A stretch of DNA of 64,000 nt from an uncultured Gemmatimonadaceae bacterium (lineage in GTDB: Bacteria > Gemmatimonadota > Gemmatimonadetes > Gemmatimonadales > Gemmatimonadaceae), in assembly GCA_963822945.1 (NCBI GenBank), contig CAWGJO010000001.1, positions 1 through 64,000 on the forward strand, written 5' to 3'. Below are positions 24,433 through 37,145 of this stretch, piece by piece. Position 1 is the first letter of the stretch. Each line of letters opens with the position of its first letter. The translations under genes were made by a program, and so were the position numbers. The notes under the pieces are model-generated. The model was given only the letters and a program-made list of their open reading frames with translations. It did no database searches and was not told the DNA's origin.

Positions 24433-25656
24433 TCAGGTGACGCACGCGAGCGCGCGTTCGGCAATTTCGCTGCCGATGGCCAGCGCGGCGGTCGCCGCGG
24501 GACTCGGCGCATTCAGCACGTGCAGGGAGCGCTCTCCCTCCGCGAACGCGAAGTCGTCGACGAGTGTGCCGTCGGGGCGCAGTGCCTGCGCCCGGATGCC
24601 CGCCGGCCGCGGTTCGAGCATCTCGGCCCGGACCCGGGGCACGAGCTTCTGGAGCGCCCGGACGAATGCGGCCTTGGAGAACGACCGGTGCACCTCGCCG
24701 AGTCCCATGCGCCAGTGGGCCGCGGCCAGCCGTCGGAAACCGGAAAAGCGGAGCGTCTCCAGGGCATCGCGCACGTTGAGGGACAGGCGGCCATAGGCTT
24801 CGCGTCCGAGCGCCAATACCGCGTTCGGCCCGCACTCGATGCCGCCCTGCACCATGCGCGTGAAGTGCACGCCGAGGAAGGGGAAGGCGGGATCCGGGAC
24901 GGGGTAGATCAGGTTTCGAACGAGCGTCGGCGCGTCCGCCCGGAAGGCGTAGTACTCGCCGCGGAAGGGCGTGATGCGGAGGGGAGGCGCCAGGTGGTCG
25001 AGTCGCGCCACGCGGTCGCTGTACTGACCCGCGCAGTTGACGAAATAGCGGGTGGAGTACTCCTCGCCGCCCGCCGATACCACACGAACGCCGTCGCCGT
25101 GTTGCAGGCGATTGACCCGGCGGCCCGTCTCCACCCGTCCGCCCGCCCCCTCGATGAGCGCGACGAGCTGTCTGCACACGGCGACATAGTCGACGATGCC
25201 GGTTTCGGGCACGTGCAGAGCGGCGATCCCGGCGGCATCCGGTTCGATCTCGAGCAATCCGAGCCTGTCGACCCGAGTGACGCCGGACAGCCCGTTGGCA
25301 GCGGCGCGCGCCTCGAGCACCTGCAACCGGGGCAGTTCCGCCTCCGACGTGGCGACGATGACCTTGCCGCAGACTTCGTGCGCGACGCCGTACGCATTCG
25401 CGAAGTCCAGCAGTTGGTGGTACCCGGTGCGACAGAGGCGGGCCTTGGCGCTATCCGGCTTGTAGTAAATGCCCGAGTGGATGACGCCGCTGTTGCGACC
25501 CGTCTGGTGGCGCGCGACGGCCGCCTCCTTCTCGAGCACGAGCACGCGTGCGTCGGTGGCTTGCTGGGTGAGGCGCCACGCGGTGGCCAGTCCAACGATG
25601 CCGCCGCCGGCGATCAGGAAGTCGTAGGGATGGGAGGATGACTGCATGCCGGTCAT
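24433..25656 (-). CDS. lhgO: L-2-hydroxyglutarate oxidase (FAD-dependent)
   Basis: GGGIVGLATA, HQTGRNSGVIHSGIYY, CGKVIVA, FRGEYY, IYPVPDPAFPFLGVHFT, GIRAQA, NAPSPAATA. Confidence 0.93.
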   Translation of the reverse strand: MTGMQSSSHPYDFLIAGGGIVGLATAWRLTQQATDARVLVLEKEAAVARHQTGRNSGVIHSGIYYKPDSAKARLCRTGYHQLLDFANAYGVAHEVCGKVIVATSEAELPRLQVLEARAAANGLSGVTRVDRLGLLEIEPDAAGIAALHVPETGIVDYVAVCRQLVALIEGAGGRVETGRRVNRLQHGDGVRVVSAGGEEYSTRYFVNCAGQYSDRVARLDHLAPPLRITPFRGEYYAFRADAPTLVRNLIYPVPDPAFPFLGVHFTRMVQGGIECGPNAVLALGREAYGRLSLNVRDALETLRFSGFRRLAAAHWRMGLGEVHRSFSKAAFVRALQKLVPRVRAEMLEPRPAGIRAQALRPDGTLVDDFAFAEGERSLHVLNAPSPAATAALAIGSEIAERALACVT

Positions 25657-26084
25657 GAGGGGGTGGTTCGGGGAGAAGCGAGGCGATCGTCCCGTAACGG
25701 CGCCGTTCGCAGGGTCATATGTAAGTCCCGTACCTCGGGGGGACCAGAAAAGTGCTTGACATGTCAACGAACGGCCCCGCGACGGTTCCGACAGACGGCG
25801 GTCGCGCTCGGCCATCCCGGATGCATCAAGGTGGGGCATGGAGTCGACGGAGCCCGTTCCGCATGGTATACTCGGACGGAGATGCGTACGCGTCCGGGTT
25901 GGCCGCAGGGGACTTGGTGGGCTCCCAATCGAGCGACCAGCCGCCGCCAGCCGATCGGGGTGATTTCCCGGGCGCAAAATGGCGTCCGTTGGGCCGCCGA
26001 GGAGGAGGGTGTCGAAATCGCTGCGCCCGGAGTGTGGCTCGGATGACTACCGGTGCGATATCGGCATGTCTTTCGGGCGCTTGG

Positions 26085-26100
26085 CGGCATGTAAATTGCT
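26085..26100 (+). promoter_or_regulatory. Sigma54 (-24/-12) promoter candidate for the RiPP operon
   Basis: CGGCATGTAAATTGCT matches TGGCACG-N4-TTGC(A/T) with exact GG-N10-GC spacing, about 55 nt before the PqqD ATG. Confidence 0.6.
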
Positions 26101-26154
26101 ACCACTCATGGCGGTTGCTCCGATCATCTGCCCTCCCCAGCCCGAGCTGTCCCG

Positions 26155-26445
26155 ATGGAGTCGGCCTTGACCGAAGACGTTCTGCCCGGCCGTCGCGAAG
26201 CCGTCGTGTTCCAGACGGTTTCCGATGGCGCCATCCTCCTCCATACGGAGGAGGAGGTTTACTACGGCCTGAACGCAGTGGCGGTGCGCGTGTGGGAACT
26301 CCTTCCGGACCATCGGGATCTCGGCGAACTGTGCGCTTGCTTGAGCGCTGAGTACCCGGATGTGGCGCCCGAACAACTCCGGACCGACGTGGCGGAGTTG
26401 CTGGACGCGCTGGAGCGCGCCGGGCTGGTGGTGCCGCGATCATGA
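26155..26445 (+). CDS. PqqD family RiPP recognition element (lasso B1/E protein)
   Basis: DGAILLHTEEEVYYGLNAVAVRVWELL...LSAEYPDV...DVAELLDALERAGLV, a classic stand-alone RRE. Confidence 0.92.
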   Translation: MESALTEDVLPGRREAVVFQTVSDGAILLHTEEEVYYGLNAVAVRVWELLPDHRDLGELCACLSAEYPDVAPEQLRTDVAELLDALERAGLVVPRS

Positions 26446-26912
26446 TGGCACAGGCGCGATCCCGCGTGGGGGCGCTGGCCCGGCTGCCCGCCCTTTCGGC
26501 CCGTGACCTCGCGTGGGTGGGGCGGGCGCAGTGGTACCTGCTGGGCGCGCGTCTCTCGCTCCTTCTGACGCCGCGAGGCCGGCTGTTGGCCGCCGTGCCC
26601 GCGGCGGAGGCCGGGAAGGCACCGGGCGGAGACGCGATGGCTCGTTCGCGGCGAGTGGCTCTCGCCGTGGATCGTGCGGCGCAGTACGGGCTGTTCTCGC
26701 CGACGTGTCTGGTGCGTGCGATCGCGCTCGAGCGGATGTTGACGCGTGAAGGCGTCGCGGGCGCGGTGGTTCGCATCGGCGCGCGTCAGCGGGCGGCACG
26801 GCCGGAGATGCACGCGTGGATCGAGGTCGGCGGTGTCGTGATCGGCGAGCGACCGGAAGTGGCCGGTGCGTTCACGCCGCTCCACGACTTCACGGCGGTA
26901 CGGCGCGTATGA
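26442..26912 (+). CDS. Lasso peptide biosynthesis B2 protein (transglutaminase-like leader peptidase)
   Basis: PTCLVRAIAL (catalytic Cys), VVRIG, HAWIE (His, Trp, Glu); ATGA overlap with the RRE gene. Confidence 0.92.
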   Translation: MMAQARSRVGALARLPALSARDLAWVGRAQWYLLGARLSLLLTPRGRLLAAVPAAEAGKAPGGDAMARSRRVALAVDRAAQYGLFSPTCLVRAIALERMLTREGVAGAVVRIGARQRAARPEMHAWIEVGGVVIGERPEVAGAFTPLHDFTAVRRV

Positions 26913-27025
26913 GCGGATTTCATGGGGGACCTCGGCTGGACCAGGGACCCTGCTTTCAGTTGCGGGACGGGCCCGCATCCAGCGCGAGCCTGCCGCTCGC
27001 ACGTTCTACATAACCTCGGGGGACC

Positions 27026-27169
27026 ATGTACGAGAAACCGAAGCTGGAACGGTACGGCACGCTCCGAGAACTCACGTTGCTTGGGTTCGAACACCACTGG
27101 GATGGCGGCCATTTCGGCCATCATTTCTTCGGTGGGGGGTGGACCGATCACGAGAGTGATCGATCCTGA
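27026..27169 (+). CDS. Lasso-type RiPP precursor peptide (47 aa), absent from the ORF track
   Basis: Manual translation MYEKPKLERYGTLRELTLLGFEHHWDGGHFGHHFFGGGWTDHESDRS; YxxPxL...G...LT leader motif, GGGGGA RBS, Asp at core position 8, C-terminal Ser. Confidence 0.9.
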   Translation: MYEKPKLERYGTLRELTLLGFEHHWDGGHFGHHFFGGGWTDHESDRS

Positions 27170-27228
27170 CGAGCATGAGAGCGGGCGGCGTCGGTCTGGT
27201 TGACGGCGCCGTCCGGCTCTCGGGCCGC

Positions 27229-28179
27229 ATGCACTGCTATCATCTCTTCGGCGGCATCCTCGCCTCCGAGATCGAATTTCCCGGGTTGCCGTCCGCTCCC
27301 CCGGGGAAAGGACGCTGGTCGCTGACGTGCGCCGCGCCGCCGGCGTCCGCGGACCCGTTGCCGCGGCTGGGCGCCGAGGCGGTGACGGGGCGCGTGCGGG
27401 TGGTGTTGCGCGGCTCGCCGTCGCGGTTCCGATTGACATATGACGACACCGGTGCATTCGAAATAACTGATGGCGGTCGGCGAATCGTCTGGCATCGGCC
27501 GGCCGGTGCATCGGTCGACCTCCGGAACGTGCGGGCCGATATCCTGGGGCGCGTGGTGGCCGTGGCGCTCGCCGCCGCCGGGATTCCCACGTTCCACGGG
27601 AGCGGCGTGGCGCTGGGCGGCCGGGGCGTGCTCTTTCTGGCGCCCAAGCGACATGGAAAGTCGACGGCGGCGGCGGCCCTCGTACGGGCCGGTGCGCGAC
27701 TCTGGGGGACGACACGATCGGCGTGGTGCCCGGGGCGCGAGCCAATGGTGCTGCCGGGCGTTCCGGCGGTGAACCTGTGGCGCGACGCGGCACGTTGGCT
27801 CCAACCGACGGCCGTACTGGGTGAAACCGGCCGCAAACGGCGAATCAACTGGGGCAGCCTCGGCGAGCGCGCTGAGCATCCGGTGCCGCTGGGGGCCGTG
27901 TATCTCCTGGATCCCGCCGACGCGGGGGAAGTACGGCGGGAACCGCTGCCTGCGGTGCCGGCGGCGCTGGCCCTTGTTGGGCAAGCCAAGATCGGCGCGT
28001 TGCTGGGGCCCGGACACGCCCCCACGCTGTTGGCACAATGCGTGCGCCTGTCGGCGGCCGTTCCCGTGTATCGGCTCACGGTGCCGCGAGATCTGAGTCG
28101 CATCGGCGAACTGGTGCGATGCGTGGGCGAGTGGCACGACACGCCACTGCGGGCTGCGGGCGGAGCGCCGGTGCCGTGA
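27229..28179 (+). CDS. HPr-kinase-like RiPP kinase
   Basis: FHGSGV (conserved His), FLAPKRHGKST P-loop; the GDD motif is present in a shifted frame at 27705-27713; N-terminal YHLFGGILASEIEFP. Confidence 0.82.
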   Translation: MHCYHLFGGILASEIEFPGLPSAPPGKGRWSLTCAAPPASADPLPRLGAEAVTGRVRVVLRGSPSRFRLTYDDTGAFEITDGGRRIVWHRPAGASVDLRNVRADILGRVVAVALAAAGIPTFHGSGVALGGRGVLFLAPKRHGKSTAAAALVRAGARLWGTTRSAWCPGREPMVLPGVPAVNLWRDAARWLQPTAVLGETGRKRRINWGSLGERAEHPVPLGAVYLLDPADAGEVRREPLPAVPAALALVGQAKIGALLGPGHAPTLLAQCVRLSAAVPVYRLTVPRDLSRIGELVRCVGEWHDTPLRAAGGAPVP

Positions 28180-29279
28180 CACCGGGCGCGGCCGCTGCCG
28201 ACTCGGACGGGGGCGCGCCGGCCACGACGTTCGCCGACCCGCATGGCGGGCCCACCATCATCCGCATCCGCGGGCTCGAGAAGCGTTTCTCGACCCGCCG
28301 TTCCCTCGGGCAGTGGGTGGGGCGTCCCCGGAGGCGGGCGCCGGTAACCGCGCTTGCGGGCGTCGCGCTCGACATCCCGCGCGGCGGCTTCTTCGGGCTG
28401 CTCGGTCCGAACGGCGCCGGCAAGACCACGCTCTTCAAGATCCTGGCGACGCTCGTGCGGCCCGAGGCGGGCGTGGTCGAAGTGGACGGCATCGACGCGC
28501 TGCGTGAACCCGCCGCGGTGCGCGCGGTATTGACCCCGGTGATCGCCGACGAGCGGAGCCTGTACTGGCGGTTGTCGGGTCCCGAGAATCTCCGGCTGTA
28601 CGCCGCGCTGTACGGAGTGCCCAAGTCGCGTCGCGATCCTCGCATCCGGTCGCTGCTCGAGACGGTGGGTCTTGGCGACGCCGGGGATCGCATGGTGGGC
28701 ACGTATTCCTCGGGAATGAAGCAGCGCCTGCTGATCGCCCGCGCGCTCCTCTCGCGGCCGTCGGTGCTGCTCCTCGACGAGCCGACGCGTAGTCTCGATC
28801 CGGTGAGCGCCCGCGACTTTCGACGGTTTCTGCGCGAAGAGGTGGCCGGACGCCAGGGATGCACCGTTGTACTTGCCACGCACAACGCGGACGAGGCGTT
28901 CGATCTGTGCGAGCGGCTCGCCGTACTGAATCGCGGGGTTCTGATAGCGACGGGCACGGCCGATTCCCTGGCCCGTGCGGCCGCCACCGAGCGATGCCGG
29001 ATCACCGTGGCAGCGTCCGAGTCGGCGAGGGCCGTCGCCGTCGCGGAGAAGAGCGGGTTCGTCGGCTTCGCCCCGAGCGCGTCGACGGACGACGGGTGGG
29101 TGGTGCTCGAGGGACCGGCGGACGGCGGCGCGGCGCGAACGGCGGACTTGAACGCGCTGCTGCTGGGTGCCGGGATCCCGGTGGCCGCCGTCGAGCCGGT
29201 GCGGTTGGCGCTCGCCGACCTCATCGAGGGGTTGGTGGCACGGGCGCGGAAGCCGGCCGCCCTCGAGGTCGCGCCGTGA
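28176..29279 (+). CDS. ABC-2 type exporter ATP-binding subunit
   Basis: GPNGAGKTT, YSSGMKQR, LLLDEPT, ATH; GTGA overlap with the kinase gene. Confidence 0.93.
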   Translation: MTPGAAAADSDGGAPATTFADPHGGPTIIRIRGLEKRFSTRRSLGQWVGRPRRRAPVTALAGVALDIPRGGFFGLLGPNGAGKTTLFKILATLVRPEAGVVEVDGIDALREPAAVRAVLTPVIADERSLYWRLSGPENLRLYAALYGVPKSRRDPRIRSLLETVGLGDAGDRMVGTYSSGMKQRLLIARALLSRPSVLLLDEPTRSLDPVSARDFRRFLREEVAGRQGCTVVLATHNADEAFDLCERLAVLNRGVLIATGTADSLARAAATERCRITVAASESARAVAVAEKSGFVGFAPSASTDDGWVVLEGPADGGAARTADLNALLLGAGIPVAAVEPVRLALADLIEGLVARARKPAALEVAP

Positions 29280-30076
29280 GCCGGGTGGCCGCGCTGGCGC
29301 GGGCGGACTGGATGGCGTTCGCCAGCTATCGGATCCGACTCCTGATGTCGGTGTTCGCCCTGCTGGCCACCGTCGTACCGCTCTACTTCGTTTCCGGCGC
29401 ACTGCAGCCGGTGATGGGACCGGTGATTCGCGACGAAGCGCACAACGCGTTCGGCTTCCTGCTGTTGGGCATTGCCGCGCTCTCGCTGGTCTCGACGGCG
29501 GTCAACGCGCTGCCGACGGAAGTGGGGGCCGGGATCAGCACGGGTACGCTGGAAGCGCTCCTCGCCACGCCGACCCCGCTACCGGCCCTCCTGCTCGGCA
29601 TGGTGGCGTTCACCGTGGAGTGGTCGGCGATCCGGGGCGTGATCTTCGTGGGCGCCGGATGGGCCCTGGGGGCGCAGCTCGTAGGGGCGCAGGTGGTTCC
29701 GGCGGCGGCAATCCTCCTGCTGCTCATGGCCGTACACTTTGCATTCGGATTGTGCGCGGCGGCCCTCGTGATCGCCTTTCGAACGTCTGCAGCAATTCCC
29801 AAGGCCGTGTTGTTCCTTTCCTCGCTGCTTGGCGGGGTGTACTACCCCACCCACGTGATTCCGTCGTGGCTGCAAACGGCATCGGCGCTTCTTCCCATGA
29901 CCTACGGCCTCCGCGCGCTGCGCCGGGTGCTCCTGCAGGGCCAGAGCCTGGCGGCGGTTGGCGCCGACGTGGGCATTCTGGCAGCTTTCGGGGTGTTCCT
30001 CACACTCGTTGGCGCCGTCGCTTTGATGGCCGCGCTTCGTTACGCGCGCTCGCACGGGACCCTCGCGCAGTACTAG
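29276..30076 (+). CDS. ABC-2 type exporter permease
   Basis: 6 TM segments, GTLEALLATP, LGGVYYP...PSWLQ...LPMTYGL; GTGA overlap. Confidence 0.9.
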   Translation: MSRVAALARADWMAFASYRIRLLMSVFALLATVVPLYFVSGALQPVMGPVIRDEAHNAFGFLLLGIAALSLVSTAVNALPTEVGAGISTGTLEALLATPTPLPALLLGMVAFTVEWSAIRGVIFVGAGWALGAQLVGAQVVPAAAILLLLMAVHFAFGLCAAALVIAFRTSAAIPKAVLFLSSLLGGVYYPTHVIPSWLQTASALLPMTYGLRALRRVLLQGQSLAAVGADVGILAAFGVFLTLVGAVALMAALRYARSHGTLAQY

Positions 30077-30078
30077 CG

Positions 30079-31284
30079 ATGGCGCCGCGATCGCGCAGTG
30101 CCGAAGCCGAGTTGGTGCTGGAGTGCGTGTGTGCACCGGCGTCGGCCGGCGGACCGACGGCGCCGACCCCGCACGCCGCCGATGTCGACTGGCTGCTGGT
30201 GGCACAACTCGCGGAACGGGAGCACCTCCTCGGCGTATTGTGGCCGGAGCTTTCGGCGGCGCACGTTGCGATCCCGGACACGATCGCCGCCGCAATGCGA
30301 CGTCAGGCGCTCGTCAGCGAGTTCCGCATGGCCGCACTCGAAGCGAAACTCGCGCAGGTGGTCCGCCTGCTCGCCGAACACGACATCCCGGTGATGCTCA
30401 TGAAGGGCGCGGCGCTCGCCACGACGCGCTACGGCTCGTTCGCCCAGCGCCCCATGGGCGACCTGGATTTGTTGGTACGCGAGGCCCAGGCGGAGGAGGC
30501 GTGGGAACTGCTGCACGGCGCCGGCTGGCGGCCCGAGCGGGAAGGCATGGACGGCTTCTACGCGAAGCACCAACACCTGTGCCCGCTGGTGGCCCCCGGT
30601 GGCGGCAACGTGGTCGTGGAGCTGCATCGGTGTCTGCTCTATCCCCACGGCCCGTTCCAGCTGCCCGAAGACGACGTGTGGACGGCGGCGTCGCCCGTGG
30701 ACGTCGGCGGACACACTGCCTGGGTGCCGTCCCCCGAGCACCTAGCACTGCACCTGTGCATCCACTTCGCATGGTCGCACGAGATGCGCTTCGGGTTGGG
30801 GCGGATGGTTCGGGACCTGGGCGTGCTGAGCCCCGTCGTCGACTGGGACCGCCTGGTTCGCTTGGCGCACGCCACGCATGCCGAGTCCTGCTGCTACTGG
30901 CCGTTGAGGCTGGCGGCATTGCTCGGCGGCGTGCCCGTGCCGCCCGAGGTGACGGCGTCGCTCGCTCCGCGTTCGCCGGCGTGGCTGCGGAATGCACTTG
31001 TGCGAGTCGTGATTACCGCCGCGCTCGATCCGCGACGGGAGTTCGTCCCGTCGATCCAACTCTGGCACTTCGCATGGGCGCTCGCCATCCGTCCCGGCGC
31101 GTCGGGGCACGGCGCGGCGAGGCCGTGGCGATACCGTGAAGATTTCGGGAAGTACACGCACGGGATCCCGCCGTTGCCGATTCTTCAACGGGTCCGCGTC
31201 CAGTTGGCCGCGCTCCCGTACTGGGCGCGCTTCTTCGGTGTTGCCATCGGAATGGGGCAACGGCGTCGGCGCCGGGGCAACTGA
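30079..31284 (+). CDS. Nucleotidyltransferase family protein (NTP_transf_5-like, lasso-cluster associated)
   Basis: MLMKGAAL...Y...RPMGDLDLLV, VELH, HLCIH, DW. Confidence 0.88.
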   Translation: MAPRSRSAEAELVLECVCAPASAGGPTAPTPHAADVDWLLVAQLAEREHLLGVLWPELSAAHVAIPDTIAAAMRRQALVSEFRMAALEAKLAQVVRLLAEHDIPVMLMKGAALATTRYGSFAQRPMGDLDLLVREAQAEEAWELLHGAGWRPEREGMDGFYAKHQHLCPLVAPGGGNVVVELHRCLLYPHGPFQLPEDDVWTAASPVDVGGHTAWVPSPEHLALHLCIHFAWSHEMRFGLGRMVRDLGVLSPVVDWDRLVRLAHATHAESCCYWPLRLAALLGGVPVPPEVTASLAPRSPAWLRNALVRVVITAALDPRREFVPSIQLWHFAWALAIRPGASGHGAARPWRYREDFGKYTHGIPPLPILQRVRVQLAALPYWARFFGVAIGMGQRRRRRGN

Positions 31285-31475
31285 CCACTCCGCCCCGTCG
31301 GGTTGCCGCGCCTCGCCGGTGCGTGTAGTTACCAAGCATCGAACCTCGGCTTCCGCTCCGGGTACCGACATTACGTGTCTGCCGATTCTCGTTCCCACAG
31401 GTCTTCTGAACCCCGGCTACGGGAGCGCTCGCTGCGAGTGAGCGTCGGTCGCGTCGCGCGCGCAAGCCCAAGCGC

Positions 31476-33239
31476 ATGGCGATGAACTGGTTCCGGCCCT
31501 TTCAGGATCTGTCGGAGTCCTCACCGTTCAGTGATGGCGGCAGCCCGGATCCCGGGCTCTCGGAGGAATCGCGCCGGCAGCGCCGGTTGATCGTCGACAC
31601 GATCGTGCTCGGGGTGATCGGCGCGCTGGCGGCGCAGCTGTTCATGCATCTGCTCGGGTGGGCGAACGACCTCTTCCTCTACCACCTCGCGGGGTATCAG
31701 CCGCCCGGCCTGCCGACGGAGCACGGGGACCTGGCGCAGCATATTGGCCGGTACGGCCTGTGGTTGATTCCCGTGGCGACCACCCTCGGCGGTCTGGTGG
31801 TGGGCTTCATGGTCCAGGGGCTGGCGCCGGAGGCCGAAGGCCACGGTACCGACACGGTGATTCGCGCCTACCACCAGCAGGACGGCATCCTGCGCGGCCG
31901 GGTGGCGCCGGTGAAGTTGGTCGCCTCGGCGATCACGATCGGTTCGGGGGGCGCGGCCGGGCGCGAAGGCCCGGTGGCGCTGATCACCGCCGGTGTCGGC
32001 TCGTGGTACGGTTCACTGGCCGGCCGCGACGCCGAGGACCGCCGGCTGCTGCTGCTCATCGGGATGGCGGCCGGCCTGTCCGCGATCTTTCGCTCGCCCA
32101 TCGGCACGGCGATCATGGCGGTCGAGGTGCTGTACTCCGACATGGAGTTCGAGCGCGGCGCCCTGTTGTACACGATGCTGGGCTCGATCATCGCGTATGC
32201 GGTGAACGGGATGTTCGTGGGATGGCTGCCGCTGTTTCAGATGCCGGGTCCGATCGCGCGACTCCATTCGCCATTGATGTACGGCTGGTACGTGGCGCTC
32301 GGCATCGCGGCGGGGGTACTGGGCACCGTGCTGCCGGCGGTCTTCTACGGCCTGCGCGACTGGTTCAAGGGGCTGCCCATCCAGCCCTTTCTTCGGCCGG
32401 CGCTGGGCGGCCTGCTCACCGGGCTCATCGCGCTTGCCTATCCGCAGGTGATCGGCGGGGGCTACGGGTGGATGCAGCAGGCCATCAACGGCCAGATCCT
32501 GCTGGGTACGCTGGCCGTGCTGGCGTTCGCCAAGATCTTCGCGATGAGTCTGTCGGTGGCCAGTGGAGGCTCGGGCGGCGTGTTCGCGCCGAGTCTGTTC
32601 GTGGGCGCGATGCTCGGCGGGGTGTTTGCCACGCTGCTCCACCAGCCGGCCGCCGCGTTCGTGGTGGTGGGCATGGCCGCGGTGTTCGCCGGTGCCGCGC
32701 ATCTGCCCATCGCCACGCTGATCATGGTGTCGGAGATGACGGGTGGCTACACGCTGCTCGTGCCCGCGGCGCTGGCCGTGATGATCAGCTACCTGGTGCA
32801 GTCGCGGCTCTCCTCGCGTCTGAAGTACGGGAGCATCTACGAGGCGCAGGTGCCCAACCGCGCCGAGTCGCCGGCGCACCGGCGGCAGCAGCTGCAGGCG
32901 GCGCTGCGCGTGCTCAAGCGGCAGGGGCTGCCCGATCTCTCCGACGTGGGCGAGCTGGACTTGTTCACGCTCATCAAGTCCGGATTGCCGGTGGAGCTGC
33001 CGGGCGGGCTGCAACTCGTGGCGGGAACGCTGCGTCCCGACAGCTCGATCGTGGGGTGCACGGTGGCCGACACGGTGCGGCGCCTGGAGACGCCGGATAC
33101 GTCCGTCATCGCCATCGTGCGCGGCGAGACGTTCGTGGTGCCGGCGGCCGACACCGTGCTGGAGGCACGCGACCGCCTGATCCTGGTGGTGGCGTTGTCG
33201 TCGGTGGACGCCGTGCGCCGCCATCTGGCGGCGTGGTAG
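31476..33239 (+). CDS. CLC family chloride channel/antiporter with C-terminal TrkA-C (RCK_C) domain
   Basis: EGHGTD, GGAAGREGP, GGSGGVFAPSLFVG, SEMTGGY, IYEAQ; C-terminal VIAIVRGE...DRLIL. Confidence 0.9.
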   Translation: MAMNWFRPFQDLSESSPFSDGGSPDPGLSEESRRQRRLIVDTIVLGVIGALAAQLFMHLLGWANDLFLYHLAGYQPPGLPTEHGDLAQHIGRYGLWLIPVATTLGGLVVGFMVQGLAPEAEGHGTDTVIRAYHQQDGILRGRVAPVKLVASAITIGSGGAAGREGPVALITAGVGSWYGSLAGRDAEDRRLLLLIGMAAGLSAIFRSPIGTAIMAVEVLYSDMEFERGALLYTMLGSIIAYAVNGMFVGWLPLFQMPGPIARLHSPLMYGWYVALGIAAGVLGTVLPAVFYGLRDWFKGLPIQPFLRPALGGLLTGLIALAYPQVIGGGYGWMQQAINGQILLGTLAVLAFAKIFAMSLSVASGGSGGVFAPSLFVGAMLGGVFATLLHQPAAAFVVVGMAAVFAGAAHLPIATLIMVSEMTGGYTLLVPAALAVMISYLVQSRLSSRLKYGSIYEAQVPNRAESPAHRRQQLQAALRVLKRQGLPDLSDVGELDLFTLIKSGLPVELPGGLQLVAGTLRPDSSIVGCTVADTVRRLETPDTSVIAIVRGETFVVPAADTVLEARDRLILVVALSSVDAVRRHLAAW

Positions 33240-34544: not shown

Positions 34545-36983
34545 TCAGGGTGCGGAAGTGCGCAGCCGCGCCAGCGTGTCGGGCAGGCCCAGCCTCTGGA
34601 GGATCGCGAGGAACTTCGGATTCGAGCGAATCGGATCGAAGATCGGTTCGGCGAGCGATTCGGCGGAGAGCAGCGGGGCATGGGCCCGGGCGGCGGTGTC
34701 GAGTGCCGCGAGGGCGCCCGCGGTGTCGCCGGTGCCGAGCAGGGCGTGGGCCGAGATCACTGCGGCATCCGGATTGTTGGCCGCGGCCGCGGCCCGGGCG
34801 ATGGCCCGAGCGCGCTGCGTGTCGCCCACGCGCGCGTAGGCATACGCGAGCATCGCATTCACCGCGCTGGACGTCGGGTTGCGGCGGGTGCCCATGGCGC
34901 CGGCGGCCTCCAGCGGGGCGAGCGCGGAGTCGGCATGGCCGCCGAACGCCTGCACGACGCCGAGGGCGAGTTGCGTGACGTAGTTGGTGGAGTCGAGCAC
35001 CATCGCCCGGCGGGCGGCGGCGAGCGCCGCGGTCTGGTTGCCGGCGATGCTGAGGGCCATGGCGTACGAGGCCAAGCCGGAGGCGGAGGTCTGGTCGAGC
35101 GTCGTCGCCCGGCGCAACTCACGCACCGCGTCGGTCACCTGGCCCTGGAGGAGGAGCGTTTCGCCCAGCCCCTGGTGAGCGATCGCGTCTCGCGGATTGA
35201 TGGATACGGCCTTGCGGTAGTCGCGTTCCGCGTCGGCCCATCGGAATTCGGCTTTGAAGAGCGCACCGCGTGCGGTGTACGCATCGGAGAGCGTGCTGTC
35301 GAGGGCGATGGCGCGCGTGGCGGCGGCGATGCCGAGCGACAGGAGCGAGTCGGACGGCGCCGGGTTGTACGTGGGGAGCAGGGAGTAGGCGTGCGCCGCG
35401 GCGGCGTAGGCTTTGGCAAAGGTCGAGTCGCGTCGCACCGCCCACCCGAGCGTGTCGAGGGCGCGGCGGAGCGCGCGCGCGCCCGGCCGGCTGATGAACC
35501 CGGTGGCGCGGGTGTAGGCCTCGTAGGCCGTGGGATCCTTGGTGCCGCGCTCGGCGACCAGTTGGGCTTGCGGCGCGAGCCGCGGCTCGAGGGCGGTGGC
35601 GATCGACATCGCGATGCTCTGCTGCACCGAGAACATGTCGCGCATCGTGGGATCGTACATGTCGGACCAGGCGATGAATCCGTCGTTCGTATTGACGAGG
35701 CTGGCCGCGATCCGGAGGGAGTCGCCCTGCATCTGCACGGTTCCCTCGAGCACGTATCCCACGTTGTACTTGGCGCCGAGCTCCTGCTGCGTGCGGTAGG
35801 GCGCGTTGTTCGTCGCGCCGGGAGGGATCGCGGCCACACGGATGCCGGGGATGCGCGTGAGGGCGTTCACCAATTCGGTGGTGATCCCGTCGGCGAGCGT
35901 CTGATCGCTGGAATCGGCGCCCTGATTGACGAACGGCATCACCAGCACCGAATGCGCGCGGAGGGAATCCGGGTTCTCGGCGGCCGTGGCGCTCTCGGCA
36001 TGGTCCCGCATGGTGACCACCGCCGCGGTGGCCCCCGCGGCGACCAGCACGAGGGCGACGACGATGCCGGTGAGCCGGCGCCGGGTTCGCGATCGCGCGG
36101 TGGCGGGCAGGGAATCGGTACTGATGATGGCCGGGTCGTCCAGCGCGTCGACGATCTCGCGTGCCGATTGCGGCCGCTCCTCGGGCTCCTTGGCCAGGCA
36201 CCGCATGATCAGCGTGGTGAGACGCGGGGGGAGCCCTTCGCGCACCTCGTCGAGCGGGCGCGGGGGCTTGGCCAGGTGCGCGGCCAGCAGCGCCTGCGGC
36301 GTGAGCGAGGCGAAGGGCGGGCCGCCGGTGAGCATCTCGTACGCCATTACGCCGAACGAGTAGATGTCGGCGCGGGCATCGACGTCGGGATCGGCGGCGA
36401 TCTGCTCGGGGGCCATGTAGGCGGGCGTGCCCACCGTGGTGCCCACCTGCGTGAGCACGCTGGACCGCGGGCCGCTGGGCGTGCGCTGCGCCGAGAGCAC
36501 GGCCTTGGCGACGCCGAAGTCGGTGACCATGGCCGAGCCCGACGCGAGCAGGACGTTGTCGGGTTTGATGTCGCGGTGCACGATGCCGCGTTCGTGCGCG
36601 TAGGCCAGCGCCCGCGCGACGTCGCGGAGGATGGTCACCACCTCGCGCACCGGCATCGGGCCCGAGGCCATCATGCGGGCCCGGAGCGACTCCCCCTCGA
36701 TGAACGGCATCGTGAAATACGGGAGGCCGTCCACCTCGCCGGCCGTGAGGACACCGACGATGTGCGGATTCTGGAGCGTAGCCGCCACCAGGATCTCGCG
36801 CATGAACCGTTCGAGTTGGACCGACGCGGCCAGCTCGGGCGACACGACCTTGACGGCGACGCGGCGGTTGAGCGCCTGATCGTACGCCACGAAGACGCGC
36901 GACATGCCGCCGCCACCGAGCTCACGCTCGATGGTGTAGGTGGGCCCGAGCTGCTGCTGCAACGCGTCGCGAATTTCGTTCAT
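34545..36983 (-). CDS. Ser/Thr protein kinase with TM segment, TolB-N-like and TPR domains
   Basis: ELGGGGMSRVF, VAVK, HRDIKPDN, TDFG, GTPAYMAPE, SVLVMPFVN, TPR-like repeats. Confidence 0.92.
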   Translation of the reverse strand: MNEIRDALQQQLGPTYTIERELGGGGMSRVFVAYDQALNRRVAVKVVSPELAASVQLERFMREILVAATLQNPHIVGVLTAGEVDGLPYFTMPFIEGESLRARMMASGPMPVREVVTILRDVARALAYAHERGIVHRDIKPDNVLLASGSAMVTDFGVAKAVLSAQRTPSGPRSSVLTQVGTTVGTPAYMAPEQIAADPDVDARADIYSFGVMAYEMLTGGPPFASLTPQALLAAHLAKPPRPLDEVREGLPPRLTTLIMRCLAKEPEERPQSAREIVDALDDPAIISTDSLPATARSRTRRRLTGIVVALVLVAAGATAAVVTMRDHAESATAAENPDSLRAHSVLVMPFVNQGADSSDQTLADGITTELVNALTRIPGIRVAAIPPGATNNAPYRTQQELGAKYNVGYVLEGTVQMQGDSLRIAASLVNTNDGFIAWSDMYDPTMRDMFSVQQSIAMSIATALEPRLAPQAQLVAERGTKDPTAYEAYTRATGFISRPGARALRRALDTLGWAVRRDSTFAKAYAAAAHAYSLLPTYNPAPSDSLLSLGIAAATRAIALDSTLSDAYTARGALFKAEFRWADAERDYRKAVSINPRDAIAHQGLGETLLLQGQVTDAVRELRRATTLDQTSASGLASYAMALSIAGNQTAALAAARRAMVLDSTNYVTQLALGVVQAFGGHADSALAPLEAAGAMGTRRNPTSSAVNAMLAYAYARVGDTQRARAIARAAAAANNPDAAVISAHALLGTGDTAGALAALDTAARAHAPLLSAESLAEPIFDPIRSNPKFLAILQRLGLPDTLARLRTSAP

Positions 36984-37145
36984 GCAAGATCGGTCGCTGA
37001 GAGCGCGCGTTCCGCGCGCCATCCCTGAGACAATGTCGAACTCCTCAAGGTTGGCCGCGGACTTGGCGCGGCCGCCCGGGGCCGCCGGTGCCCTGTGCGC
37101 CGGTCCTCCCAGGGATTATACGCCGCGCCGGTGCAAACTGCGGCA

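Follow-up and report, generated by a model that had tools for sequence, protein, structure and literature searches.

Lasso peptide clusters with tailoring genes for the peptide C-terminus and a family of linear phosphopeptide clusters are the closest described systems to the operon considered here. It lies on a 64,000-nucleotide stretch (the window) of a contig from an uncultured Gemmatimonadaceae bacterium (contig CAWGJO010000001.1, assembly GCA_963822945.1) and encodes a lasso-type system for a peptide made on the ribosome and modified after translation (RiPP) that has no cyclase gene. The window genome (G000) is a draft of 3.97 Mb in 45 contigs, 88% complete, and the contig carrying the window, C1, is 70,309 bp long.

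The psm cluster of Bacillus pseudomycoides consists of psmC, A, K, B1, B2, N and D (Zyubko et al. 2019, PMC6993621). In the biosynthesis of pseudomycoidin the kinase puts a phosphate on the C-terminal Ser of the precursor, to which the nucleotidyltransferase (NTase) PsmN then attaches one or two hexoses. PsmC is strictly required for the ring, and cells without PsmC yield only linear peptide. Purified B1 and B2 cleave the precursor in vitro without C. In the paeninodin (pade) system and with the kinases ThcoK and SyanK, the C-terminal Ser is phosphorylated before maturation by B1, B2 and C (Zhu et al. 2016, via the review PMC9266682). Linear polyphosphorylated peptides (LPP) are encoded by lpp clusters of Bacillota that hold a RiPP recognition element (RRE) and an HprK-like kinase, plus an NTase and an exporter, and no cyclase (Popov et al. 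2026, PMC13381572). The LPP product is linear, leader-trimmed and phosphorylated; the clusters often adjoin a lasso cluster, and the family is described as restricted to Bacillota. An earlier note on the window, made from its letters and open reading frames (ORFs), had drawn on similar background (kinase action on the C-terminal Ser, NTase-linked glycosylation and the need for a cyclase), which agrees with PMC9266682 and PMC6993621. No characterized lasso peptide or related RiPP from Gemmatimonadota was found among the titles and abstract openings listed, which point only to surveys and genome mining.

The window operon resembles the psm cluster in its split B1 and B2 genes, HprK-like kinase (K), PF14907-type NTase (N), Ser-ending precursor (A) and ABC exporter. 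Nevertheless, psm has PsmC whereas the window has only a cyclase scar, and the psm exporter is the ABC-type PsmD whereas that of the window is a two-gene ABC-2 pair (Ta and Tp), DrrAB-like. The Gemmatimonadota host, the YxxP leader and a His-rich core also distinguish the window from psm. Compared with paeninodin, it has no cyclase, a kinase without Asp-Asp as assembled and an additional NTase.

The LPP clusters and the window have in common a discrete RRE along with an HprK-like kinase and an NTP transferase without a cyclase, subject to a caveat on the active site of the window kinase, and leaders with a YxxP-type motif. The leader peptidase differs, being the signal peptidase I (SpI)-like (SipW-type) LppS in LPP and B2 in the window; no signal peptidase was detected among the seven operon ORFs with Pfam and NCBIfam, and the operon has no unassigned ORF space. 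The LPP exporter is MsbA-like, in contrast to the ABC-2 ATPase and permease of the window. The LPP leader (YxxPxVLxHQxIxFETxxS) is longer, and the window leader is without the HQxIxFET part. LPP phosphorylation occurs on Ser3 of a 45-aa core, while the putative site in the window is the C-terminal Ser. By these comparisons, the window cluster would work like an LPP system without being a member of that family; its scar and its chimeric permease show it to be a recent derivative of a lasso cluster. From sequence comparison, the locus is very probably an orphaned satellite copy of a phospho-/glyco-tailoring lasso cluster of the paeninodin/pseudomycoidin type.

Operon structure and the cyclase scar

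The operon spans 26155-31284 on the forward strand as seven same-strand genes, B1-B2-A-K-Ta-Tp-N. All seven ORFs were scanned against Pfam and NCBIfam.

26155..26445, +: B1, PqqD-like RiPP recognition element, 96 aa (PF05402, E 1.4e-18)
26442..26912, +: B2, lasso leader peptidase, transglutaminase-like Cys protease, 156 aa (PF13471, E 5.8e-16)
26909..27013, +: relic of the deleted lasso cyclase gene (spacer alignment with complete sister clusters)
26984..27000, +: GC-rich inverted repeat, 6-bp stem, 5-nt loop, directly 5' of the precursor gene (sequence reading)
27026..27169, +: precursor A, 47 aa (NF033521 lasso leader, 27.6 bits, cut-off 19)
27175..28179, +: K, HprK-like lasso-tailoring kinase, 334 aa from ATG 27175; alternative start ATG 27229
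27701..27740, +: compensated frameshift inside K (alignment of 13 kinases; contigs from sequencing run X2)
28176..29279, +: Ta, ABC transporter ATPase, DrrA-like (PF00005, E 2.4e-27)
29276..30076, +: Tp, ABC-2 permease, chimera of two paralogs (PF01061, E 5.2e-13)
30079..31284, +: N, nucleotidyltransferase, PsmN-like, GDLDLL motif (PF14907, E 2.1e-44)

Sixty relatives were searched with the window kinase and 14 loci were retrieved. In all, 9 orthologous clusters are present in the genus. A lasso cyclase gene is located between B2 and A in five of the nine (G012b, G009, G010, G005 and G001) and is missing there in three, namely the window cluster (WIN), G012a and G006. The ninth, G003, is on a 2,989-bp contig ending in the kinase, so its cyclase could not be judged. 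The complete sister clusters G010 (L052/L144), G005 (L053/L147), G001 (L054/L145), G009 (L051/L149) and G012b (L049/L143) have the same gene order and flanks as the window cluster, a nearly identical leader, and B1, K, Ta, Tp and N proteins of 58-82% identity. Their Asn-synthetase-like cyclases are 640-670 aa long, with the G009 copy in two frames. The earlier note had raised the idea of a new class and had named an AsnB-like gene in this locus of close relatives as what would speak against it; the five sister clusters thus refute the idea. The gene-neighborhood analysis of kinase homologs that the note proposed did show the cyclase-less architecture to recur, in G012a and G006.

Where the cluster is complete, the cyclase gene starts with an ATG that overlaps the stop codon of B2, begins M-S-G-F, and ends just 5' of the GC-rich inverted repeat. 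The B2-to-A spacers of WIN, G012a and G006 were aligned with the B2/C and C/A junctions of G012b, G001 and G010. The window spacer is 113 nt of continuous sequence. It opens with the first 13 nt of the cyclase gene (M-S-G-F), the ATG again overlapping the B2 stop. Some 45 nt of different sequence separate these from the final codons of the cyclase, after which comes the intergenic region conserved between cyclase and precursor. The cyclase stop codon is mutated in this relic. The scar in G012a has the same boundaries as in the window, and G006 retains about 60 nt more of the cyclase 5' end. The inverted repeat at 26984..27000 is also found 3' of the cyclase stop in the complete sister clusters. 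In RNA folding it was part of the minimum free energy structure, and the 126-nt relic and intergenic region was no more stable than shuffled sequences (z = -0.22).

An independent 225-nt metagenome contig from run X2 bridges the B2-to-A junction (26792-27016) with 3 mismatches and no gap. Because the 113 nt are continuous and this contig bridges them, the cyclase-less junction is not an assembly gap. Since same-genus orthologs hold the cyclase and the window keeps the deletion scar, the locus is a derived paeninodin/pseudomycoidin-type cluster and not a separate class.

The absence of an AsnB-like gene claimed by the earlier note was borne out. A whole-genome search with PF00733 (Asn_synthase) returned 8 matches, on C20, C21 and C35, and none of the eight was on C1. 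The C35 match was rejected as a hidden cyclase: it is QueC, matched through its PP-loop only. Also rejected was an AsnB-like gene at about 906 kb on C20, which is in a glycosyltransferase context, is split into three frames and did not match queries with cyclases of the complete (b-type) clusters.

The gene list, order and orientation given in the earlier note hold, and its first start, 26085, has to be replaced by 26155. Its description of a largely translationally coupled operon is supported by 4-nt overlaps at B1/B2 (stop over start), K/Ta and Ta/Tp, the Ta GTG start overlapping the K stop; the gaps are 5 nt at A-K and 2 nt at Tp-N. The best NCBIfam matches of B1 are the lasso PqqD models NF033530 and NF033536, both under their strict cut-offs. 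B2 scores 62.8 bits against NF033537 (lasso_biosyn_B2; cut-off 33), and the Cys and HAWxE motifs that the note had read as intact are present (PTCLVRA and HAWIEVGG) and conserved in an alignment with 8 homologs. Ta matches TIGR01188 (drrA) with E 1.5e-67, under the cut-off. A scan of 25600-31600 for promoters and terminators gave a promoter-like element at 25844-25872 and a terminator-like element at 26050-26064, with no excess over shuffled sequences.

Tandem pair and loss of the complete copy

The route by which the window lost its cyclase becomes apparent from G012, in which two copies of the cluster lie in tandem.

L049 (G012:C15), 16034-4259, minus strand: G012 tandem pair, with two precursor genes, the cyclase and N in copy b

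Copy a (B1-B2-A-K-Ta-Tp) is without cyclase and without N. It is followed by a 585-bp spacer and by copy b (B1-B2-C-A-A-K-Ta-Tp-N). No N-gene remnant was found in the spacer, which is unique non-coding DNA. The pair sits between the same flanking genes as the window cluster, and the window flanks match at 86% and 91% identity. From B1 to Tp, the window genes have their closest relatives in copy a (74-93% protein identity). The window N is the ortholog of the single N that closes the G012 pair; the two share 82% identity, and their dS of 0.39 is similar to that of the a-type genes.

The window permease is a-like up to about 29897 (about 620 nt) and b-like from about 29902. At sites that distinguish the two G012 copies, the left part has 108 a and 19 b states and the right part 7 a and 45 b. 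A chimeric Tp in this a-then-b order is the hallmark of recombination between the two permease paralogs that excised the b copy. The G006 permease has its breakpoint about 75 nt earlier, with 68 a to 40 b sites on the left and 10 a to 57 b on the right. In the kinase tree WIN and G012a group together at 99/97 and G006 lies outside at 90/94. The different breakpoint in G006 and this placement indicate that the b copy, which held the only cis cyclase, was lost twice. The four DNA sequencing runs carry only 5-8% of the sampled words of the stretch, and their contigs leave much of it uncovered; the permease breakpoint and the Tp/N junction both fall in one such gap, 29717-30247.

By comparison of the clusters, the sequence of events was very probably as follows. 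An ancestral cluster, B1-B2-C-A-K-Ta-Tp-N, was present as a tandem pair. The upstream copy a lost its cyclase through an internal deletion, and its core diverged to a His-rich sequence. In the window lineage the downstream complete copy b, from B1 to Tp and with the sole cis cyclase, was then excised by homologous recombination between the permeases, joining the a copy to the shared terminal N gene. No b-type cyclase was found elsewhere in G000 or G006, where the best match was a C20-type cyclase of 30-31% identity; the same query found a 77% identical ortholog in G010. At the level of the genus, the cluster ortholog is missing in 9 of 17 genomes, which have kinase matches of at most 35% identity or none.

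Outside the cluster, on its 3' side, a Ser/Thr protein kinase-like ORF of 825 aa with a long C-terminal repeat region lies on the minus strand (34545-37022).

Precursor, kinase and selection

The 47-aa precursor reads MYEKPKLERYGTLRELTLLGFEHHWDGGHFGHHFFGGGWTDHESDRS. With a cleavage site inferred from the sequence, the first 18 aa by position form the leader, with Thr at -2, and the remaining 29 aa the core. The leader, MYEKPKLERYGTLRELT-L, is of the lasso type, with YxxPxL followed by Thr at -2, and it scores above the cut-off of the lasso leader model NF033521 (lasso_leader_L3). A purine-rich stretch, GGGGGA, is located 3 nt 5' of the precursor ATG. The core has Asp8, five His residues and a C-terminal Ser. 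An alignment with 6 orthologs shows hardly any variation in the leader and the same C-terminal Arg-Ser in 7 of 7 sequences; the precursor thus ends in the Ser expected of a kinase substrate. Counted after Thr(-2)-Leu(-1) at the inferred site, Asp8 lies within the 7-9 interval of macrolactam acceptor residues.

Four a-type precursors (window, G012a, G006 and the metagenome locus L063) all share an HFGHHFFGG block and the C-terminal Arg-Ser. The conserved His-rich core suggests a metal-binding peptide. The cores of the complete sisters, in contrast, are Gly/Asp-rich, most of them with two Cys. Between the a-type sublineages, 5 of the 9 ring positions have changed, against only 3-4 of 20 in the tail, which fits a ring under relaxed constraint. 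A metagenome cluster with a cyclase (L079:1930-2334) has two precursors, the second with an eight-residue run of six His and two Arg, and His-rich cores therefore seem to have arisen more than once in the precursor family.

The wider family was sampled by an alignment search with the precursor, using the best 80 of 111 metagenome relatives and 18 genome loci; a query with only the kinase had returned no relatives from the genome or metagenome contigs. Among the 80, the cyclase is directly 5' of the precursor in 42 and elsewhere on the contig in 3, while in 8 the B2 gene is directly 5' of the precursor and the contig has no cyclase; 27 were not assessable for a cyclase. The eight cyclase-free loci fall into three groups. 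One is the a-type locus L063. The second, L086/L087/L091 with L105, has no Asp or Glu at core positions 7-9, yet the motifs of B2 and of the kinase are intact; over the 17.4 kb inspected around L105 the neighboring genes are unrelated. In the third (L115/L121/L131) the precursor frame runs into an end resembling the kinase C-terminus, followed by the ATPase. On its sequence, a deletion here fused A to the end of K, which is a sign of decay in a cyclase-free lineage. The genome locus L155 (A-B1-B2-K-N) is also cyclase-free, and its core is without any acidic residue. Judged from these loci, cyclase loss recurs in the Gemmatimonadota precursor family, and old losses go together with loss of the acceptor residue.

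The kinase had no Pfam match and only a weak match to TIGR04352 (E 0.01). It is related (BLASTP 3e-17) to the kinase of a lasso cluster on C20, which itself matches PF07475, and is 58-75% identical to its same-genus orthologs, with the His and GKS(T) motifs present. HprK-like lasso-tailoring kinases have the catalytic residues His-Lys-Asp-Asp (PMC9266682), and the D158A D159A double mutant served as the dead kinase in the pseudomycoidin study (PMC6993621). As assembled, the window gene is short of one base near 27701 and has a surplus base at 27740; the two indels are 39 nt apart. The frameshift swaps the invariant ...LLGDDxxAVxPG.. with the catalytic Asp-Asp for ...LWGTTRSAWCPGRE, in which Asp-Asp becomes Thr-Thr. 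The Asp-Asp pair is present in the other 12 of 12 aligned kinases, and the window +1 frame reads DDTIGVVPG.

Two contigs of run X2, 93-96% identical to the window, have an extra G behind 27701 and one base fewer at 27740, which restores the consensus reading. Because these relatives carry exactly the opposite indels, the lesion is either strain-specific or an assembly error. Frameshifts were also found in the G009 cyclase, the G001 kinase and the G006 permease. Elsewhere in the window genome, a PLP enzyme of Cys/Met metabolism is split over two frames at G5/C5 runs (L018:~6640, C35), and the AsnB-like gene of C20 is split over three (L010:8658-10697; C20:~905.6-907.7 kb); these two are either pseudogenes or assembly indel errors. 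Given such frameshifts in other clusters and in unrelated genes of the genome, the kinase lesion was weighted little either way.

The seven ORFs contain no internal stop codons. Pairwise dN/dS is 0.10-0.30 for the a-type genes and 0.14-0.38 for the complete clusters. Private codon changes, counted only in columns where the other two sequences agree, are 20 non-synonymous and 80 synonymous on the WIN branch and 38 and 93 for G012a (Fisher p = 0.13). The 20:80 ratio implies that a neutral phase can have occupied only a small part of the WIN branch, and these counts indicate that purifying selection has acted over most of it.

Possible products of the operon

The reading that we favor, tentatively and at somewhat short of even chances, is that the operon makes a linear, leader-trimmed, His-rich peptide whose C-terminal Ser is modified only if the kinase works. 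B1 would bind the YxxPxL...T leader. K, if active, would phosphorylate the C-terminal Ser of the precursor, and N would decorate the phosphate. B2 would cut after Leu(-1), freeing the 29-residue core, which the ABC-2 pair would export. A linear product appears most likely because the cognate cyclase is gone, while each of the steps that remain is self-sufficient in biochemical terms. By analogy it is feasible, given the cyclase-free cleavage by B1 and B2, kinase action before cleavage, the LPP systems and the acceptor-less relatives. With the same reserve, the locus could be a B2-dependent counterpart of the Bacillota LPP systems. The earlier note had offered three options, and each now stands differently: a linear peptide has gained the LPP precedent and the acceptor-less relatives, a cyclase in trans has a candidate on C20, and decay keeps a smaller probability.

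Several observations weigh against a linear, tailored product. Each of the four a-type precursors keeps an acidic residue at core position 8, as a macrolactam requires; it is Asp in the WIN and G012a sequences and Glu in those of G006 and L063. The C20 cyclase is the one lasso cyclase left in the window genome. As assembled, the kinase retains the catalytic His and Lys and has lost Asp-Asp; if this loss is real, the phospho-/hexosyl-tailoring that defines LPP would be impossible in this strain. In G012, with a cyclase 5 kb downstream, the a-type peptide is probably still cyclized. Finally, if the b copy was lost very recently, the signs of purifying selection would be uninformative about cyclase-free function.

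The strongest competing explanation, which we nevertheless consider doubtful, is cyclization in trans: a Leu1-Asp8 macrolactam of the window peptide would be closed by the C20 cyclase, with the window supplying precursor, B1, B2, tailoring and export. The features concerned are the following.

C20:717700-724350 (L009:8715-15342): second lasso locus, B1-C-A-K-N-D (PqqD, cyclase, HprK-like kinase, PF14907, ABC exporter)
C20:718053-719942: lasso cyclase, 629 aa (NF033535 E 1.1e-75, best family; PF00733 E 3.4e-23)
C35:67499-67939 (L018:9500-9940): orphan B2-like gene behind queC/queE (NF033537, 50 bits, cut-off 33)

The family that the C20 ORF matches best is that of lasso isopeptide-forming cyclases, and its gene context is that of a lasso cluster. 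The C20 locus has no B2 gene, and the C35 orphan, the only other B2-like gene of the genome, is far from any cyclase. C20-type cyclase and kinase matches together with a separate B2 match recur in most genomes of the genus. Lone B2 matches likewise occur in most of them, including G004, without a cyclase match (E <= 1e-10) and without a kinase match; the unpublished genome G022 was counted only in these genus tallies of kinase, cyclase and B2 matches. Eight metagenome clusters (L085, L106, L110, L113, L116, L123, L127 and L140) have the order B1-C-A-K(-Ta-Tp), B2 not being detected, and a B1-C gap of about 80-220 nt that leaves no space for it; their cores have two Cys and end in PNPRS. Because of the C20 locus without B2, the orphan B2 genes across the genus and these eight loci, lasso parts acting in trans seem common in the group, and shared parts may already be normal in the genus.

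Trans cyclization would also suit the leaders, since those of the window and C20 both read Y-x-x-P-x-L...G...R-x-L-T, the relaxed leader specificity that RREs keep outside Bacillota according to the discussion of PMC13381572, and the acidic position 8 of the a-type cores. Nevertheless, the C20 cyclase is only 29-31% identical to the cyclases of the window's precursor family, the two B1 proteins are 37% identical, and the C20 proteins overall are 30-37% identical to their window or b-type counterparts. The candidate C20 precursor, with a YxxPxL...LT leader, has a core unrelated to that of the window, with 9-residue ring geometry; it ends in Phe, not Ser, despite the kinase and NTase at its locus. 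Moreover, within the a-type core it is the ring region that changes fastest, and none of the papers retrieved was seen to document a lasso cyclase that acts for another cluster.

It is unlikely that the operon is simply a relic, in the sense that the a copy relied on the b-copy cyclase and, after a very recent excision, became useless and began to decay. Such decay would explain why two indels scramble the kinase Asp-Asp while a close relative in run X2 is intact, why G006, the other genome with only an a copy, has a permease frameshift, and why precursor and kinase are fused in the cyclase-free L115/L121/L131 lineage; the absence of the ortholog from many genus genomes is consistent with eventual loss. 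Against this, the 5.1 kb contain no stops and translational coupling is retained, the private changes on the WIN branch are no worse than those of G012a, and the same history would need to hold independently for G006. The frameshifts occur equally in complete clusters and in housekeeping genes of the assembly and may be assembly errors, and the compensating second indel in the kinase suggests selection for the downstream frame.

That the cyclase is really in the locus and was dropped or collapsed in assembling a tandem repeat is extremely improbable: the draft state of the genome and the tandem paralogs of 77-84% identity in a sister genome would allow for it, but the permease has a single clean breakpoint, G006 has the same architecture with a different one, the a and b copies are too divergent to collapse (about 77% nucleotide identity), the independent X2 contig spans the B2-to-A junction, and a collapse cannot remove a cyclase between B2 and A that is also missing in G012a.

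If the C20 cyclase did act on the window peptide, two precursor families without relation to each other would share a single cyclase, and different loci would pool their lasso parts. The locus represents a lasso cluster caught losing ring formation, through duplication, cyclase deletion in one copy, divergence of its core and excision of the complete copy. In this concrete way, lasso clusters could give rise to cyclase-free systems of the LPP kind. The locus illustrates how lasso clusters can turn to linear peptides or become reliant on an enzyme whose gene lies at another place. Three close genomes, with a and b copies, a only and b only, form a natural experiment on the function of the cyclase-free module and on a distant cyclase acting in trans. 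The locus is of interest mainly because it is an intermediate in evolution and offers a ready-made test of whether such a module can do without a cyclase.

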